Part shown: positions 1,180 through 7,784 of the stretch, one piece after another
Position numbering within the stretch: the stretch's first letter is position 1
Layout of the letters: the number at the start of each line of letters is the position of its first letter
DNA from: a virus
Lineage: Duplodnaviria; Heunggongvirae; Uroviricota; Caudoviricetes
Virus record (IMG/VR): IMGVR_UViG_2541047168_000023
Coordinates: 1-11,416 of that record
Length of the DNA: 11,416 bases
Direction: 5' to 3' (one strand)
Program-made: the position numbers and the translations under genes
Notes under the pieces: model-generated
Database searches by the model: none
Told to the model about the DNA's origin: nothing
What the model saw: the letters and a program-made list of their open reading frames with translations, nothing else

Positions 1180-3080
1180 TATGATGAGCGCTGTCACAAC
1201 TGCATTACAGCCCCTGATAAGGGCATTGCCGGTGACGCCAGTTGAATGGGCTGATCAAAATTATTATCTGCCTAAAGAATCTTCATATGGTGAGGGCGAA
1301 TGGAAAACGCTGCCATTCCAGATCGCCATCATGAACAGTATGGGGAATGATCAGATCCGCACTGTTAATCTGATTAAATCTGCCCGTGTTGGCTATACAA
1401 AGATGTTGCTGGGGGGGGGGCGGGTATTTTATTGAGCATAAATCCCGAAACAGTCTGCTTTTTCAGCCCACGGATTCTGCCGCTGAAGATTTTATGAAGT
1501 CTCACGTGGAGGCGACGATTCGGAACGTGCCATGCCTGAAAGACCTTTCCCCATGGCTGGGTCGTAAACATCGTGACAATACTCTCACGCTGAAACGCTT
1601 TTCATCGGGCGTCGGTTTCTGGTGCCTGGGCGGCGCTGCCGCCAAAAACTACCGTGAAAAATCCGTTGACGTGGTCTGCTATGACGAACTTTCCTCGTTC
1701 GAGCCGGATGTCGAAAAAGAGGGCTCGCCAACCCTGCTGGGGGATAAGCGTATTGAGGGGTCGGTGTGGCCAAAATCCATTCGCGGCTCGACGCCTAAAA
1801 TCAAAGGCACCTGCCAGATCGAAAAAGCCGCTAACGAGTCGGCGCATTTTATGCGTTTTTATGTGCCCTGCCCGCACTGTGGGGAGGCGCAGTATCTGAA
1901 ATTTGGCGATGAGTCCACGCCTTTTGGGCTTAAATGGGAGAAGGACAGCCCTGAAAGTGTTTTCTACCTCTGTGAACATCATGGCTGCGTGATCCATCAG
2001 TCTGAACTGGACCAGAGCAACGGGCGGTGGATCTGTGAAAACACGGGCATGTGGACCCGTGACGGTCTGACGTTTTTCAGCGCCCGGGGTGATGAAATTC
2101 CGCCGCCGCGCTCCATCATGTTCCATATCTGGACGGCGTACAGTCCGTTCACCACCTGGGTACAGATTGTCTATGACTGGCTGGATGCACTGAAAGATCC
2201 CAACGGCCTGAAAACCTTTGTGAACACCACGCTGGGCGAGACCTGGGAAGAGGCCGTGGGCGAAAAACTCGATCACCAGGTACTGATGGATAAGGTGGTG
2301 CGTTACACGGCGGCGGTGCCTGCCCGGGTGGTTTATCTGACGGCGGGCATTGACTCGCAGCGAAACCGTTTTGAGATGTATGTCTGGGGATGGGCTCCGG
2401 GAGAGGAAGCCTTTCTGGTGGATAAAATCATCATTATGGGGCGTCCTGATGAGGAAGAGACGCTGTTACGTGTGGATGCGGCGATCAACAAAAAATACCG
2501 CCATGCGGATGGCACCGAAATGACTATTTCCCGTGTCTGCTGGGACACCGGGGGGATCGATGGTGAAATTGTTTATCAGAGATCAAAAAAACACGGTGTT
2601 TTCCGGGTGCTGCCGGTAAAAGGCGCATCTGTCTATGGCAAGCCGGTGATCACCATGCCAAAAACCCGCAATCAGCGGGGCGTGTATCTGTGTGAAGTGG
2701 GAACGGACACCGCAAAAGAAATTCTCTATGCCCGTATGAAAGCCGATCCCTCGCCTGCGGATGAAGCCACGTCGTATGCCATCCGTTTTCCTGATGATCC
2801 GGAGATTTTTTCGCAGACAGAGGCGCAGCAACTGGTGGCGGAAGAGCTGGTGGAGAAGTGGGAAAAAGGAAAGATGCGTCTGCTGTGGGATAACAAAAAG
2901 CGGCGTAACGAAGCGCTGGACTGCCTGGTGTATGCCTACGCGGCATTACGTGTGTCCGTGCAACGCTGGCAGCTTGATCTGGCTGTACTGGCAAAATCCC
3001 GGGAAGAAGAGACGACCCGGCCAACCCTGAAAGAACTGGCAGCGAAGCTGTCCGGAGGAGTGAATGGTTACAGTCGCTGA
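1151..3080 (+). pseudogene. A: Terminase large subunit (gpA homolog), frame interrupted at a G10 tract (real frameshift or homopolymer error)
   Basis: Two ORFs in different frames (1094-1435 and 1386-3080) together give a full-length gpA homolog. The likely start is ATG 1151 (MNISEQQL..., compare lambda MNISNSQV...). The frames switch at GGGGGGGGGG (1411-1420); removing one G gives ...GYTKMLLGGGGYFIEHK..., collinear with lambda ...GYSKMLLGVYAYFIEHK... Downstream motifs are conserved (KNYREKSVDV, FVNTTLGETWE, KRRNEALDC). Confidence 0.8.
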
Positions 3081-3270
3081 ACTGCAGGCGCTGCGTCAGG
3101 CGCGCCTTGATTTATTAACCGGTAAACGGGTGGTGTCTGTCCAGAAAGATGGTCGCAGAATTGAATATACGGCGGCTTCTCTGGATGAGCTTAACCGGGC
3201 GATCAATGATGCGGAGTCGGTACTGGGGACAACCCGGCGTCGCCGTCGTCCGCTGGGAGTGAGGTTATGA
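3064..3270 (+). CDS. W: Head-tail joining (head completion) protein gpW
   Basis: 68 aa, with LxxGKRVxxVQKDGRRxE[FY]TA and a C-terminal RRRR motif as in lambda gpW. The start overlaps the end of A and the stop overlaps the B start (ATGA at 3267-3270). Confidence 0.85.
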   Translation: MVTVAELQALRQARLDLLTGKRVVSVQKDGRRIEYTAASLDELNRAINDAESVLGTTRRRRRPLGVRL

Positions 3271-4859
3271 AACGAACGCCTGTCCTGATTGATGTGAACG
3301 GCGTTCCGCTTCGTGAGAGTCTCAGCTACAACGGGGGCGGTGCAGGATTTGGCGGGCAAATGGCGGAGTGGTTGCCACCGGCGCAGAGTGCCGATGCGGC
3401 CCTGCTGCCCGCGTTGCGTCTGGGGAATGCCCGGGCAGATGATCTGGTGCGCAATAACGGAATAGCGGCCAATGCGGTGGCACTGCATAAGGATCACATT
3501 GTCGGGCATATGTTTCTTATCAGCTACCGTCCGAACTGGCGCTGGCTGGGGATGCGGGAGACCGCAGCAAAAAGCTTTGTCGATGAGGTGGAGGCGGCCT
3601 GGTCGGAATACGCCGAAGGGATGTCTGGCGAGATCGACGTGGAAGGAAAACGCACGTTCACGGAATTTATCCGTGAAGGTGTGGGCGTTCATGCGTTTAA
3701 CGGCGAAATCTTTGTGCAGCCGGTCTGGGATACGGAAACCACGCAGTTATTCCGTACGCGTTTTAAAGCCGTGAGTCCGAAACGGGTGGACACGCCAGGA
3801 CACGGTATGGGGAACCGTTTTCTGCGGGCCGGGGTGGAGGTCGATCGATATGGCCGTGCCGTTGCGTACCATATCTGTGAGGATGATTTTCCTCGCTCCG
3901 GGAGTGGACGATGGGAACGGATCCCGCGTGAACTTCCCACCGGGCGTCCGGCCATGCTGCATATTTTCGAGCCGGTGGAGGACGGGCAGACCCGTGGGGC
4001 CAACCAGTTTTACAGCGTCATGGAACGGCTGAAGATGCTCGATTCCCTGCAGGCAACACAGCTTCAGTCGGCCATTGTGAAAGCCATGTATGCAGCGACG
4101 ATTGAAAGTGACCTTGATACCGAAAAGGCCTTTGAATATATCGCCGGTGCGCCGCAGGGGCAGAAGGATAATCCGCTTATTAATATTCTGGAGAAGTTCT
4201 CCAGCTGGTATGACACGAATAACGTGACGCTGGGTGGTGTCAAAATTCCGCACCTTTTCCCCGGGGATGATCTGAAACTACAGACTGCGCAGGATTCAGA
4301 CAATGGATTTTCGGCGCTTGAACAGGCGCTGCTGCGGTATATCGCCGCCGGTCTTGGCGTTTCCTACGAACAGTTGTCCCGTGATTACTCGAAGGTCAGT
4401 TATTCAAGTGCCAGGGCCTCTGCCAATGAGTCGTGGCGCTATTTTATGGGGCGGCGAAAATTTATTGCGGCCCGGCTGGCCACGCAGATGTTTTCCTACT
4501 GGCTGGAAGAGGCACTTCTTCGGGGGATTATCCGTCCGCCACGGGCGCGTTTTGATTTTTATCAGGCGCGATCAGCCTGGTCACGGGCAGAGTGGATTGG
4601 TGCCGGAAGAATGGCCATTGACGGGCTCAAGGAGGTTCAGGAATCGGTGATGCGCATTGAGGCCGGACTGAGCACGTATGAGAAAGAGCCGGCGCTGATG
4701 GGCGAGGATTATCAGGACATTTTCCGCCAGCAGGTCAGGGAATCTGCAGAGCGGCAAAAAGCCGGACTCTCACGTCCGGTGTGGATAGCGCAGGCGTATC
4801 AGCAGCAGATAGCGGAGAGTCGCAGGCCGGAAGAGGAGACAACACCCCGTGAGACGTAA
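3267..4859 (+). CDS. B: Portal protein gpB
   Basis: 530 aa with long stretches matching my recollection of lambda gpB (ARADDLVRNNG, FEPVEDGQTRGAN, LQSAIVKAMYAATIES, LRYIAAGLGVSYEQLSR, GRMAIDGLKEVQE). Position after W is as in lambda. Confidence 0.9.
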   Translation: MKRTPVLIDVNGVPLRESLSYNGGGAGFGGQMAEWLPPAQSADAALLPALRLGNARADDLVRNNGIAANAVALHKDHIVGHMFLISYRPNWRWLGMRETAAKSFVDEVEAAWSEYAEGMSGEIDVEGKRTFTEFIREGVGVHAFNGEIFVQPVWDTETTQLFRTRFKAVSPKRVDTPGHGMGNRFLRAGVEVDRYGRAVAYHICEDDFPRSGSGRWERIPRELPTGRPAMLHIFEPVEDGQTRGANQFYSVMERLKMLDSLQATQLQSAIVKAMYAATIESDLDTEKAFEYIAGAPQGQKDNPLINILEKFSSWYDTNNVTLGGVKIPHLFPGDDLKLQTAQDSDNGFSALEQALLRYIAAGLGVSYEQLSRDYSKVSYSSARASANESWRYFMGRRKFIAARLATQMFSYWLEEALLRGIIRPPRARFDFYQARSAWSRAEWIGAGRMAIDGLKEVQESVMRIEAGLSTYEKEPALMGEDYQDIFRQQVRESAERQKAGLSRPVWIAQAYQQQIAESRRPEEETTPRET

Positions 4860-6354
4860 TCTTTCACACATTATTGCCGCAGCATTCAATGAACCGCTGC
4901 TTCTGGAGCCCGCCTATGCGCGGGTTTTCTTTTGCGCGCTCGGGCGCGAGATGGGGGCAGCAAGTCTTTCGGTACCACAGCAGCAGGTACAGCTTGATGC
5001 TCCCGGAATGCTGGCTGAAACGGACGAGTACATGGCCGGAGGTAAACGACCGGCCCGTGTTTACCGGGTGGTGAACGGTATTGCTGTACTGCCGGTGACC
5101 GGCACGCTGGTGCACCGGCTGGGGGGTATGCGGCCATTTTCCGGAATGACAGGCTATGACGGCATTGTCGCCTGTCTTCAGCAGGCAATGGCGGATAGCC
5201 AGGTGCGGGGCGTACTGCTGGACATTGACAGTCCGGGCGGGCAGGCCGCCGGCGCGTTTGACTGCGCTGACATGATTTACCGCCTCCGTCAGCAGAAGCC
5301 GGTCTGGGCACTGTGCAATGACACGGCCTGTTCTGCAGCCATGCTGCTGGCGTCGGCCTGCTCCCGACGGCTGGTTACCCAGACATCCCGTATCGGCTCC
5401 ATTGGCGTGATGATGAGCCATGTCAGCTATGCCGGTCATCTGGCGCAGGCCGGTGTGGATATCACGCTGATTTACTCAGGGGCGCACAAGGTGGATGGCA
5501 ATCAGTTTGAAGCCTTACCGGCAGAGGTTCGCCAGAACATGCAGCAGCGCATTGATGCGGCGCGCCGGATGTTTGCCGAAAAAGTGGCCATGTTTACCGG
5601 TCTGTCTGTTGATGCCGTCACGGGAACAGAGGCCGCCGTTTTTGAAGGTCAGTCCGGCATTGATGCCGGGCTGGCGGATGAATTAGTCAATGCGTCGGAT
5701 GCCATCAGTGTGATGGCCACGGCGCTGAACAGTAATGTCAGAGGAGGCACTATGCCGCAATTAACTGCAACGGAAGCCGCCGCGCAGGAGAACCAGCGAG
5801 TGATGGGGATCCTGACATGCCAGGAAGCGAAAGGACGTGAACAGCTTGCCACGATGCTGGCAGGACAACAGGGCATGAGCGTTGAACAGGCCCGGGCGAT
5901 TCTGGCCGCGGCGGCACCGCAGCAGCCGGTGGCATCCACGCAGAGTGAAGCCGATCGCATTATGGCGTGTGAAGAAGCGAACGGTCGTGAACAACTGGCG
6001 GCAACGCTGGCGGCGATGCCGGAGATGACGGTGGAAAAAGCCCGCCCGATCCTGGCTGCTTCACCGCAGGCGGATGCCGGACCCTCACTCCGTGATCAGA
6101 TCATGGCACTGGATGAGGCAAAAGGGGCTGAGGCGCAGGCTGAACAGCTGGCTGCCTGCCCGGGAATGACTGTGGAGAGCGCCCGGGCTGTGCTGGCTGC
6201 GGGATCAGGTAAGGCAGAACCGGTCTCTGCATCCACAACCGCCCTGTTTGAACGCATCATGGCGAACCATTCACCGGCTGCGGTACAGGGTGGCGTGCCA
6301 CAGACGTCAGCAGACGGTGATGCGGACGTGAAAATGCTCATGGCCATGCCATGA
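4849..6354 (+). CDS. C: Prohead protease/scaffold gpC (S49/SppA-like peptidase domain), with an expanded repeat at the C terminus; a nested Nu3-like scaffold product is possible
   Basis: 501 aa, GTG start overlapping the end of B. The N-terminal two-thirds match lambda gpC as recalled (AFNEPLLLEPAYARVFFCAL, MTGY, GAFDCAD, KPVWAL, RRLVTQT, GSIGVMM, ITLIYSG.HKVDGN, IDAGLADELVN). The C-terminal third carries tandem repeats (separate repeat feature). Confidence 0.9.
   Translation: MRRNLSHIIAAAFNEPLLLEPAYARVFFCALGREMGAASLSVPQQQVQLDAPGMLAETDEYMAGGKRPARVYRVVNGIAVLPVTGTLVHRLGGMRPFSGMTGYDGIVACLQQAMADSQVRGVLLDIDSPGGQAAGAFDCADMIYRLRQQKPVWALCNDTACSAAMLLASACSRRLVTQTSRIGSIGVMMSHVSYAGHLAQAGVDITLIYSGAHKVDGNQFEALPAEVRQNMQQRIDAARRMFAEKVAMFTGLSVDAVTGTEAAVFEGQSGIDAGLADELVNASDAISVMATALNSNVRGGTMPQLTATEAAAQENQRVMGILTCQEAKGREQLATMLAGQQGMSVEQARAILAAAAPQQPVASTQSEADRIMACEEANGREQLAATLAAMPEMTVEKARPILAASPQADAGPSLRDQIMALDEAKGAEAQAEQLAACPGMTVESARAVLAAGSGKAEPVSASTTALFERIMANHSPAAVQGGVPQTSADGDADVKMLMAMP
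5797..6300 (+). repeat. In-frame tandem repeats (about 141-159 bp, 3 full copies plus 1 partial) in the C-terminal region of C
   Basis: Units begin at 5797 (RVMGILTCQEAKGREQLATMLAGQQGMSVEQARAILAAAAPQ), 5956 (RIMACEEANGREQLAATLAAMPEMTVEKARPILAASPQ) and 6097 (QIMALDEAKGAEAQAEQLAACPGMTVESARAVLAAGSG), with a partial copy at 6253 (RIMANH...). As I recall, lambda gpC has a single such unit (RIMGILNCEEAHGREEQARVLAETPGMTVKTARRILAAAPQ). Confidence 0.65.
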
Positions 6355-6390: not shown

Positions 6391-6738
6391 ATGGTAACGA
6401 AAAACATCACTGAACAGCGTGCGGAAGTACGTATTTTTGCCGGTAATGATCCGGCTCATACCGCCACAGGCAGCAGCGGGATTTCCTCGGCAACACCGGC
6501 ACTGACGCCCCTGATGCTGGATGAAGCCAGCGGGAAACTGGTGGTCTGGGACGGACAGAAAGCCGGTAGTGCAGTTGGCATACTGGTACTGCCGCTTGAA
6601 GGCACAGAGACGGTACTGACCTATTACAAGTCGGGGACCTTTGCGACGGAGGCAATCCGCTGGCCTGAAAGTGTGGATGAACACAAAAAGGCAAATGCCT
6701 TTGCCGGCAGTGCCCTGAGTCACGCGGCGCTGCCGTAA
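6391..6738 (+). CDS. D: Head decoration protein gpD
   Basis: 115 aa with RBS AGGAGG (6375-6380). It shares DPAHTAT, TPLMLD, KLVxWDG, AVGIL, YKSGTF and AFAG with lambda gpD as recalled. Confidence 0.9.
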   Translation: MVTKNITEQRAEVRIFAGNDPAHTATGSSGISSATPALTPLMLDEASGKLVVWDGQKAGSAVGILVLPLEGTETVLTYYKSGTFATEAIRWPESVDEHKKANAFAGSALSHAALP

Positions 6739-6795: not shown

Positions 6796-7062
6796 ATGGG
6801 ATTGTTTACGACCCGCCAGTTACTCGGTTATACCGAACAAAAAGTGAAATTTCGTGCGCTGTTTCTGGAGCTGTTTTTCCGCCGTACGGTGAATTTCCAT
6901 ACCGAAGAGGTGATGCTGGACAAAATTACCGGAAAAACGCCGGTGGCGGCCTATGTCTCCCCGGTTGTTGAAGGAAAAGTGCTGCGTCATCGCGGTGGTG
7001 AAACCCGCGTGTTACGTCCGGGCTACGTCAAGCCGAAACACGAATTCCCCTGGAGCCGGTAA
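6796..7062 (+). pseudogene. E: Truncated major capsid protein gene (E'), N-terminal ~84 codons only
   Basis: MGLFTTRQLLGYTEQKVKFRALFLELFF...PGYVKPKHE tracks lambda gpE (MSMYTTAQLL...KFKFDPLFLRLFF...PGYVKPKHE) up to 7044. It then reads FPWSR and stops at 7060-7062. Lambda gpE is about 341 aa. Confidence 0.8.
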
Positions 7063-7784
7063 AAGGAGCCGGTACCACCCTGTGGGTTTATAACGGTCAG
7101 GGTGACGCCTATGCAAACCCGTTGTCAGACGATGACTGGCAGCGACTGGCTAAGGTGAAGGATCTGACGCCGGGCGAGATGACGGCAGAATCCTACGATG
7201 ATAACTACCTGGATGATGAAGACGCGGACTGGACCGCGACCGGGCAGGGGCAGAAATCTGCAGGTGATACCAGTTTTACGCTGGCCTGGAAACCGGGAGA
7301 GGAAGGCCAGAAAGGGCTTATAGGCTGGTTTGAAAGCGGCGATGTCCGGGCCTATAAAATCCGTTTTCCGAATGGCACGGTGGATGTGTTTCGTGGCTGG
7401 GTCAGCAGTATCGGTAAGGCCGTGACGGCGAAAGAAGTGATCACCCGCACGGTGAAAGTCACTAACGTGGGTAAACCTTCTGTAGCGGAAGAACGCAGCA
7501 AAATTACGCCGGTCAGTGCGATTAAGGTGACGCCGACATCCGGTACGGTGGCAAAAGGGAAAACAACCACCCTGACGGTTTCTTTTGAGCCGGAAAGTGC
7601 AACAGACAAGACGTTCAGAGCGGTTTCCGCCGATCCGTCGAAAGCCACCATTAGTGTGAAAGATATGACAATTACGGTAAACGGCGTGGCGACAGGTAAG
7701 GTGCAGATCCCTGTGGTGAGCGGAAATGGTCAGTTCGCCGCAGTGGCTGAAGTCACCGTTACTGAAGCGGGCGCTGCAGGGTAA
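7056..7784 (+). pseudogene. V: Major tail protein V lacking its first ~8 codons and native start (V')
   Basis: In the frame of ORF 7122-7784, the sequence from about 7056 reads [41 protein letters not shown]...[40 protein letters not shown]..., closely matching lambda gpV from about residue 9. This frame is closed by TGA at 6999-7001 and has no ATG/GTG before TTG 7122. Confidence 0.8.

Follow-up and report, generated by a model that had tools for sequence, protein, structure and literature searches.

The scaffold part of a 501-amino-acid protein encoded in the window (the whole stretch of viral DNA analyzed here, 11,416 nucleotides) contains three in-frame units of about 40 amino acids that have diverged from one another. 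We propose, with moderate confidence, that this region is the C-terminal scaffolding or capsid-targeting part common to an S49 protease (4849-6354) and to a scaffold protein started internally in the same gene (5752-6354), and that its role is multivalent. The triple repeat itself is already known, as the 'Tri boxes' of phage 21 that stand in the feature table of a GenBank annotation of the 1990s. What is added here to the phage 21 record is a prediction of the fold of the unit, its distribution, its age, the constraint acting on it and its natural copy-number variants.

The protease/scaffold gene and its three units

The gene is a gpC-like prohead protease/scaffold fusion, homologous to phage 21 gene 5 (4849-6354, plus strand, GTG start), and is identified from the list of open reading frames, its translation and homology. 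It shares 98.6-98.7% nucleotide identity with phage 21 gene 5 and with several phage-21-like phages. The initial annotation had recognized it as a gpC homologue, in agreement with the 54% amino acid identity of the product to lambda gpC (412 amino acids aligned, E = 3e-143) and with the presence of a Peptidase_S49 catalytic domain (PF01343, E = 2.8e-35, 122 bits against a cut-off of 24.9). This domain covers amino acids 146-293 (5284-5727, plus strand), a region that matches the solved SppA structures 3rst and 4kwb by sequence (E ~ 5e-16), and the head maturation protease family phrog_53 matches the 501-amino-acid protein over its full length (E = 9.7e-228). The serine of the C-S-A motif aligns with that of lambda gpC and is the putative catalytic serine. 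The portal gene (3267-4859) lies directly upstream and a head decoration gene (shp/gpD-like, 6391-6738) directly downstream, both on the plus strand; the protease/scaffold gene thus follows the portal gene and precedes the decoration and capsid genes, as in a lambda-type head operon.

A scaffold gene of 200 amino acids is nested in the same frame (5752-6354, plus strand) and is a CDS in both M81255.1 and OL657228.1, the latter labeling the two products 'capsid protease/scaffolding protein' and 'scaffolding protein'. The putative Shine-Dalgarno sequence GAGGAGG (5741-5747, plus strand) was read from the sequence, and a ribosome-binding site is annotated at the equivalent position of M81255.1; four bases separate its AGGAGG from the ATG at 5752. 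Lambda carries AGGAGG and an ATG at the position aligned to this start, and 30 of 34 related loci have a Shine-Dalgarno-like motif and an in-frame ATG before the first unit. These putative and conserved initiation signals suggest that the internal start at 5752 gives rise to a separate scaffold protein with the C-terminus of the protease, as gene 6 does in phage 21 and Nu3 in lambda. Five of 200 residues distinguish the window scaffold from phage 21 gp6 (A72V, L165M, R168H, I169F, and P183A). Database entries named 'S49 family peptidase' conceal this nested gene, a point to bear in mind when such annotations are used.

All of the units are located within the nested gene, and the repeats thus fall in the Nu3 region, where the initial annotation had placed them. 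Unit 1 (QRVMGILTCQEAKGREQLATMLAGQQGMSVEQARAILAAAAPQ, 5794-5922), unit 2 (DRIMACEEANGREQLAATLAAMPEMTVEKARPILAASPQ, 5953-6069), and unit 3 (DQIMALDEAKGAEAQAEQLAACPGMTVESARAVLAAGSGK, 6094-6213), all on the plus strand, start at amino acids 15, 68, and 115 of the nested protein, and what had been described as a partial copy starts at amino acid 167. The periods are therefore 53 and 47 amino acids, with 52 amino acids to the 'partial copy', matching the proposed unit length of 47-53 amino acids. Linker 1 (QPVASTQSEA, 5923-5952, plus strand) is predicted to be disordered (pLDDT below 50 at scaffold residues 58-63), and linker 2 (ADAGPSLR, 6070-6093, plus strand) is non-helical and of lower pLDDT in the model. 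Unit 1 is the closest of the three to the single copy of lambda. In unit 3 of the window allele, Ala replaces the near-invariant Arg of the EAKGRE loop, and the three units need thus not all be equivalent.

A self-BLASTP of the scaffold protein returned the diagonal alone, and the units were instead scored against each other by local Smith-Waterman alignment (BLOSUM62) with 2000 shuffles of one partner (shuffle mean ~25-27, sd ~5). The local scores are 101 for units 1 and 2 (z = 15.6), 87 for units 1 and 3 (z = 11.4), and 97 for units 2 and 3 (z = 14.6), and for every pair the observed score was matched by 0 of 2000 shuffles. Sixteen positions are invariant among the three copies. The self-alignment suggested earlier as a check for periodicity, run in this form, shows a significant repeat and confirms the three full in-frame copies that had been reported. 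PHROG scaffold and protease profiles also match the repeat region in three distinct stretches. An HMM of the unit matches the window protein three times and lambda gpC once (amino acids 360-400), in agreement with the single lambda unit named in the initial annotation.

The claim of a partial fourth copy is not supported. It comes down to E-R-I-M-A (6250-6264), which as a repeat copy scores at chance level in the shuffle test (z = -0.2). This motif is included in the conserved C-terminal tail (…LFERIMANHSPAAV…DADVKMLMAMP, 6214-6351, plus strand), whose motifs F-x-x-[FI]-M, SP, and L-M-x-M-P are kept across homologues. F-[ED]-x-[FI]-M is conserved in homologues at the ERIMA position, and lambda has D-R-L-M similarly placed. 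Phage 21 reads EHFMA where the window reads ERIMA, and the supposed copy is thus even less repeat-like there. ERIMA is better described as a piece of the conserved tail motif.

The record of phage 21 gives an independent view of the same anatomy. In M81255.1 ('Bacteriophage 21 head gene operon'), gene 6 contains three features of the type repeat_region, the Tri1 box, the Tri box, and the Tri3 box, with the note 'function unknown; putative'. These map without indels to window positions 5819-5922, 5959-6069, and 6100-6213, respectively, and coincide with the independently found units 1, 2, and 3, which hold them. Genes 5 and 6 of phage 21 (M81255.1 and OL657228.1) agree with the window in the gene, the nested start and the three unit positions. 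The gene itself differs only by allelic changes, whereas the prophage that surrounds it in the window is defective. Lambda gpC/Nu3 is similar in gene order (portal, C/Nu3, D, and E), in the S49 domain, in the internal AGGAGG and ATG, and in having the unit followed by a similar tail. However, its one unit (amino acids 360-400) stands behind a Thr/Ser/Ala-rich leader of ~50 amino acids, while the three units of the window stand behind a leader of 14 amino acids. OL657228.1 further annotates 'CII binding sites' in the gene (window positions 5757-5770 and 5991-6004, minus strand). We consider these irrelevant, as the pattern occurs about as often as chance would allow: the window has 4 matches where 2.06 are expected, and 26 of 200 shuffles reach at least 4.

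Copy number, stability and age of the units

A profile of the three units was searched against 1.84 billion clusters at 50% identity and found 400 cluster representatives at E <= 0.001. The best 150 of these 400 representatives include 49 full-length S49 proteins, 48 of which have one unit and one of which has three; in the 48 with one unit, the median distance from that unit to the C-terminus is 52 residues. Among 34 related loci from species-representative genomes, 28 have one unit, five have three and one has two. The three-unit loci are those of E. coli, Shigella flexneri, E. albertii, Trabulsiella guamensis, and Providencia alcalifaciens, and a Bradyrhizobium locus has a 196-amino-acid open reading frame with two units and without the protease domain. 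We took the copy-number statistics from contig-based loci and 50%-cluster representatives because a first search for homologues gave mostly partial proteins. ClpP-type prohead proteases (P0151 and P0214) also carry the unit C-terminally, which makes it a portable module and no peculiarity of the S49 family. Overall, gpC-like proteases normally carry the unit once, and the triplication is limited to a phage-21-like enterobacterial lineage.

Within this lineage the number of units varies. Three units are also found in Salmonella prophage proteins, and four in an E. coli variant (P0027). Of 80 IMG/VR contigs with a protease domain that matches the one in the window at 98% identity or more, 79 carry three units, and the exception, L042, carries two. 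The two-unit variants have four different in-frame breakpoints: in L042, units 1 and 2 are merged at GREQLA into a hybrid, in P0020 the hybrid junction follows VEQ/VEK, P0021 has cleanly lost unit 2 and one linker, and P0016 has a deletion inside unit 2. Taken with the four-unit variant, these breakpoints indicate that copy number has been altered several times in nature. The two-unit variants may, however, belong to dead prophages.

The initial annotation had warned that such repeats are prone to recombination and assembly error. This concern is not supported for the window allele, since the repeat exists at the protein level and is not visible in the DNA. Tandem Repeats Finder reported no repeat, and a DNA repeat finder gave short chance-level matches alone. 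In codon-aligned DNA the units are 56-68% identical, the longest exact word common to them is 8-9 nt, and over half of the residues that are identical between units are encoded by differing codons. With at most 9 nt of exact sequence shared between the copies, homologous recombination or assembly collapse is unlikely for the window allele. Repeats do misassemble in general, and many database entries of this gene are partial, which could make one read the triple copy as an assembly artefact or as a recent, unstable expansion in the window sequence. However, the low DNA identity, the lack of any shared word above 9 nt and the blank Tandem Repeats Finder result all speak against this, as does the recovery of the same three-unit architecture in the 1990s record M81255.1, in OL657228.1, in 79 of 80 independent IMG/VR contigs, in 57 distinct alleles of 501 codons, and in complete genomes of several genera. 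The artefact or recent-expansion reading is already refuted by these data, and we regard it as next to impossible.

The triplication is old, as sequence comparison shows. Units at the same position in the window and Salmonella proteins are 84% (unit 1), 74% (unit 2), and 62% (unit 3) identical, against 48-62% for paralogous units of the window protein. As the units are positionally orthologous across genera, the triplication predates the split of these phage lineages. In Salmonella, Trabulsiella, and Providencia prophages and in E. coli P0027, the gpC-like protease shares the triplicated architecture and has units positionally orthologous to those of the window, with an overall identity to the window protein of 47-64%. 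Units 2-4 of the four-unit P0027 are mutually 79-87% identical, evidence that one further duplication took place there more recently.

The units are also under purifying selection. We computed dN/dS on the six most divergent of the 57 distinct 501-codon alleles, and the values for the three units (0.06-0.23) are comparable to those of the protease domain (0.06-0.22). Three minus-strand open reading frames (5649-5960, 5761-5994, and 6096-6347) are unsupported, and the plus-frame dN/dS fits coding on the plus strand.

The element in the window is a defective O157-type, phage-21-like E. coli prophage, in which the gpC-like open reading frame (4849-6354) is intact. Compared with phage 21 and the intact prophage of NZ_CP045827.1, the window is without about 2.5 kb: a remnant of the capsid gene is fused to the major tail gene near 7037-7046, and FI, FII, Z, and U are gone. 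The truncated major capsid gene (6796-7062, plus strand) retains 88 codons of ~343; the window scaffold thus lacks an intact natural partner and has no capsid to build here. The capsid/tail junction is found at a coverage of at least 80% in 300 complete E. coli genomes, with 100% identity in the O157:H7 genomes among the matches listed, where PGAP tags the capsid gene as incomplete. The gene of the terminase large subunit is also split by a frameshift, as one surplus G stands in a G10 run near 1412-1421.

Predicted fold and proposed role of the module

We modeled the 200-amino-acid scaffold with AlphaFold2 using 21 homologues. The model resembles separate helical beads on a string (mean pLDDT 65.5, pTM 0.27), with pLDDT values of 70-78 in the units and below 50-60 in the linkers and tail. 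Unit 2 was also modeled singly from a 104-sequence alignment of units, and it is predicted to form three short helices (mean pLDDT 79, core ~87). The structure prediction that had been suggested for the repeat unit thus yields a small three-helix module. Its predicted order is a short helix (RIMA), the E-A-K-G-R-E loop, helix 2 (xLAxxLA), a P-G-M-T turn, and helix 3 (VExARxILAA). The near-invariant positions of the family alignment (I11, E16, A17, G19, R20, A24, L27, A28, A38, and L42) correspond to the loop E-A-x-G-R that links the first two helices and to the hydrophobic sides of the second and third. A Foldseek search of the PDB with the whole 200-amino-acid model found nothing significant (best E = 1.1). 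Matches from a profile search of PDB sequences were confined to de novo designed helical repeat proteins, which is explained by the generic helix-loop-helix of the 'LGVSLEQALKIL' type. The sources searched yielded no solved structure or mapped partner for the lambda-type scaffold C-terminal module.

We infer that each module is an element of protein-protein contact. As with other C-termini common to a protease and a scaffold, it would draw both proteins into the assembling procapsid by attaching to the capsid protein on its inner face, to the portal or to further scaffold chains. With three modules strung on short, flexible linkers rich in Pro, Ala, Ser, and Gln, the contacts could be multivalent, where the lambda scaffold would offer one module behind its long N-terminal leader. 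After assembly, the protease would degrade the scaffold, and the exposed linkers are plausible sites of cleavage. A functional analogue may be found in the scaffold of P22, in which a C-terminal coat-binding helix-turn-helix is thought to dock on the capsid protein (PMC11922011). Like the unit of the window, this is a small helical C-terminal element; the likeness is one of function alone, as we found no sequence similarity or significant structural similarity between the two. Moreover, the single element of P22 lies at the very C-terminus of a scaffold to which no protease is fused, whereas the window protein has three elements followed by a tail of 46 amino acids.

Several observations bear on the partner of such docking and on how many modules it would need. 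In lambda, Nu3-E, Nu3-Nu3, and Nu3-C interactions are reported from yeast two-hybrid assays and earlier literature (PMC3224144), and they would fit a partner among these proteins. Capsid genes of the phage 21 type are accompanied by scaffolds with three units, and those of the lambda E type by scaffolds with one. The capsid proteins of phage 21 and lambda are 62% identical and of equal length, and the co-occurrence may therefore reflect co-inheritance of the head module. Nothing obvious in the capsid seems to demand three modules, which would count against multivalent docking. The two-unit variants, with their four breakpoints, suggest that three copies may not be strictly required.

It is also conceivable that the units serve as length or spacer elements that replace the unstructured leader of the lambda type, so that the size or reach of the scaffold would matter rather than how many binding sites it has. 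In three-unit forms 16-18 amino acids precede the first unit, against 32-76 in one-unit forms, and this inverse relation between leader length and unit number keeps length compensation alive as an explanation. Yet compensation is incomplete: measured from the conserved Shine-Dalgarno sequence and ATG, the scaffold would have 131 amino acids in lambda and has 200 in the window, a difference that would fit a role in reach but leaves total lengths unequal (about 131-150 against 200). Sixteen invariant positions among the copies, dN/dS values of 0.06-0.23 and positional orthology across genera are not expected of spacers, and we consider this explanation quite improbable. The modules might, on the other hand, act in self-association or in recruitment of the portal to an initiator complex, rather than in binding the capsid protein. 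Lambda Nu3 is also reported to be needed for incorporation of the portal (PMC3224144). The Nu3-Nu3 dimers, the dependence between Nu3 and B and the C-Nu3 interactions would all fit such a role, and protease and scaffold, both bearing the module, would co-assemble. However, the same study reports the Nu3-E interaction too, and the presence of the unit on ClpP-type proteases, in phages with different portals, favors a more generic role; we therefore think a restriction to self-association or portal recruitment unlikely, if credible. That the units are helix-hairpin-helix-like DNA-binding motifs is highly improbable, as the Pfam model (PF00633) scores 13.1-15.3 bits against a cut-off of 24 and the hairpin is P-G-M-T, without G-h-G. 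We thus favor the reading of the units as contact modules that target protease and scaffold to the procapsid.

As for what this means, the finding in the window itself is of little weight, since the repeat is an allele of the known phage 21 repeat and the prophage that carries it is dead. More broadly, the results are of modest use: the C-terminal module of the lambda-type scaffold is widespread, usually single-copy and carried by two families of prohead protease. We tentatively raise the possibility that the number of modules sets the valency with which scaffold and protease dock, and that the module is an undescribed, widespread procapsid-targeting domain of S49- and ClpP-type prohead proteases. 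The natural variants with one to four copies provide a simple genetic handle on the targeting of scaffold and protease into procapsids. If the proposal were true, this series of one, two, three, and four copies would be a ready test system for scaffold valency, in which effects on capsid nucleation, on the fidelity of assembly and on the amount of protease packaged could be tested.

Capsid gene remnant and packaging region of the prophage

The element in the window is a defective prophage. Its major capsid gene (6796-7062) retains only 88 codons, being cut off by a deletion of ~2.5 kb that is seen when phage 21 and intact prophages are compared. The deletion junction lies at ~7037-7046, FI, FII, Z and U are missing, and the fused capsid gene remnant is adjoined by the major tail gene (7122-7784). 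We found this junction in 300 complete E. coli genomes (coverage of at least 80%), and its sequence is 100% identical in the O157:H7 genomes among the matches listed.

The terminase large-subunit gene is present as two overlapping ORFs (1094-1435 and 1386-3080), separated by one extra G, with phage 21 as the reference, in a run of ten G residues (G10, ~1412-1421). A +1/-1 pair is located further downstream in the same gene, at 1532/1538. The extra G may be a real change or a homopolymer sequencing error; the equivalent gene of an O157:H7 genome is annotated as frameshifted by PGAP. Upstream, a 41-nt stretch (475-515) matches the phage 21 left cohesive end at 95%. DNA similarity to phage 21 was not found in the adjacent segment (516-1232), which comprises the terminase small subunit gene (670-1179) and the start of the large-subunit gene. 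This segment is matched by other E. coli prophages, which suggests a mosaic packaging-specificity module.

Start of lambda nu3 and doubtful database annotations

The RefSeq start of lambda nu3 is the ATG at 5132 (position 2633 of our lambda locus, L003), giving a protein of 201 aa that begins MDATRQ. This ATG falls within the protease domain, and no Shine-Dalgarno sequence was found at it. A conserved AGGAGG followed by ATG is present at lambda 5342 (L003 position 2843), in exact alignment with the start of phage 21 gene 6, and the scaffold predicted from this ATG is 131 aa long. Judging from these sequence features, the annotated start of lambda nu3 may be wrong.

The complete phage 21 genome record (OL657228.1) carries annotated "CII binding sites" (TTGYN6TTGY) inside the scaffold gene, at positions equivalent to 5757-5770 and 5991-6004 of the window, on the minus strand. 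These are probably chance matches, given that the pattern occurs four times in the window, with 2.06 occurrences expected by chance. Two cluster representatives, P0152 (844 aa) and P0127 (582 aa), combine an S49 gpC-like protease with TMP_2 (tape-measure) or minor tail protein L domains; the combination probably comes from chimeric gene calling or assembly and not from a real fusion. Many database entries for the protease gene of the window are labelled "S49 family peptidase, partial", their contigs stopping within or near the gene. They probably reflect short-read assemblies that break in multi-copy lambdoid prophage regions, and not breaks at the diverged repeat.

Variation of the repeat unit and its occurrence in other proteins

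The third repeat unit of the window's scaffold (6094-6213) reads E-A-K-G-A-E in place of the E-A-K-G-R-E found in nearly all family members, the third unit of the homologues from Salmonella and Trabulsiella included; a near-invariant Arg has been lost. Across loci L084-L117, leader length (from the nested ATG to the first unit) varies inversely with the number of units, being 16-18 aa where there are three units and 32-76 aa where there is one.

In Bradyrhizobium sp. SSUT77 (locus L106, ~2501-2944), an ORF of 196 aa encodes two units, with no detectable S49 domain, and may be a stand-alone scaffold gene. Two ClpP-type (PF00574) prohead proteases, P0151 (469 aa) and P0214 (375 aa), each have one ~40-aa unit, which is C-terminal. 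Its position at the C-terminus of ClpP-type prohead proteases makes the unit a module common to two protease families.
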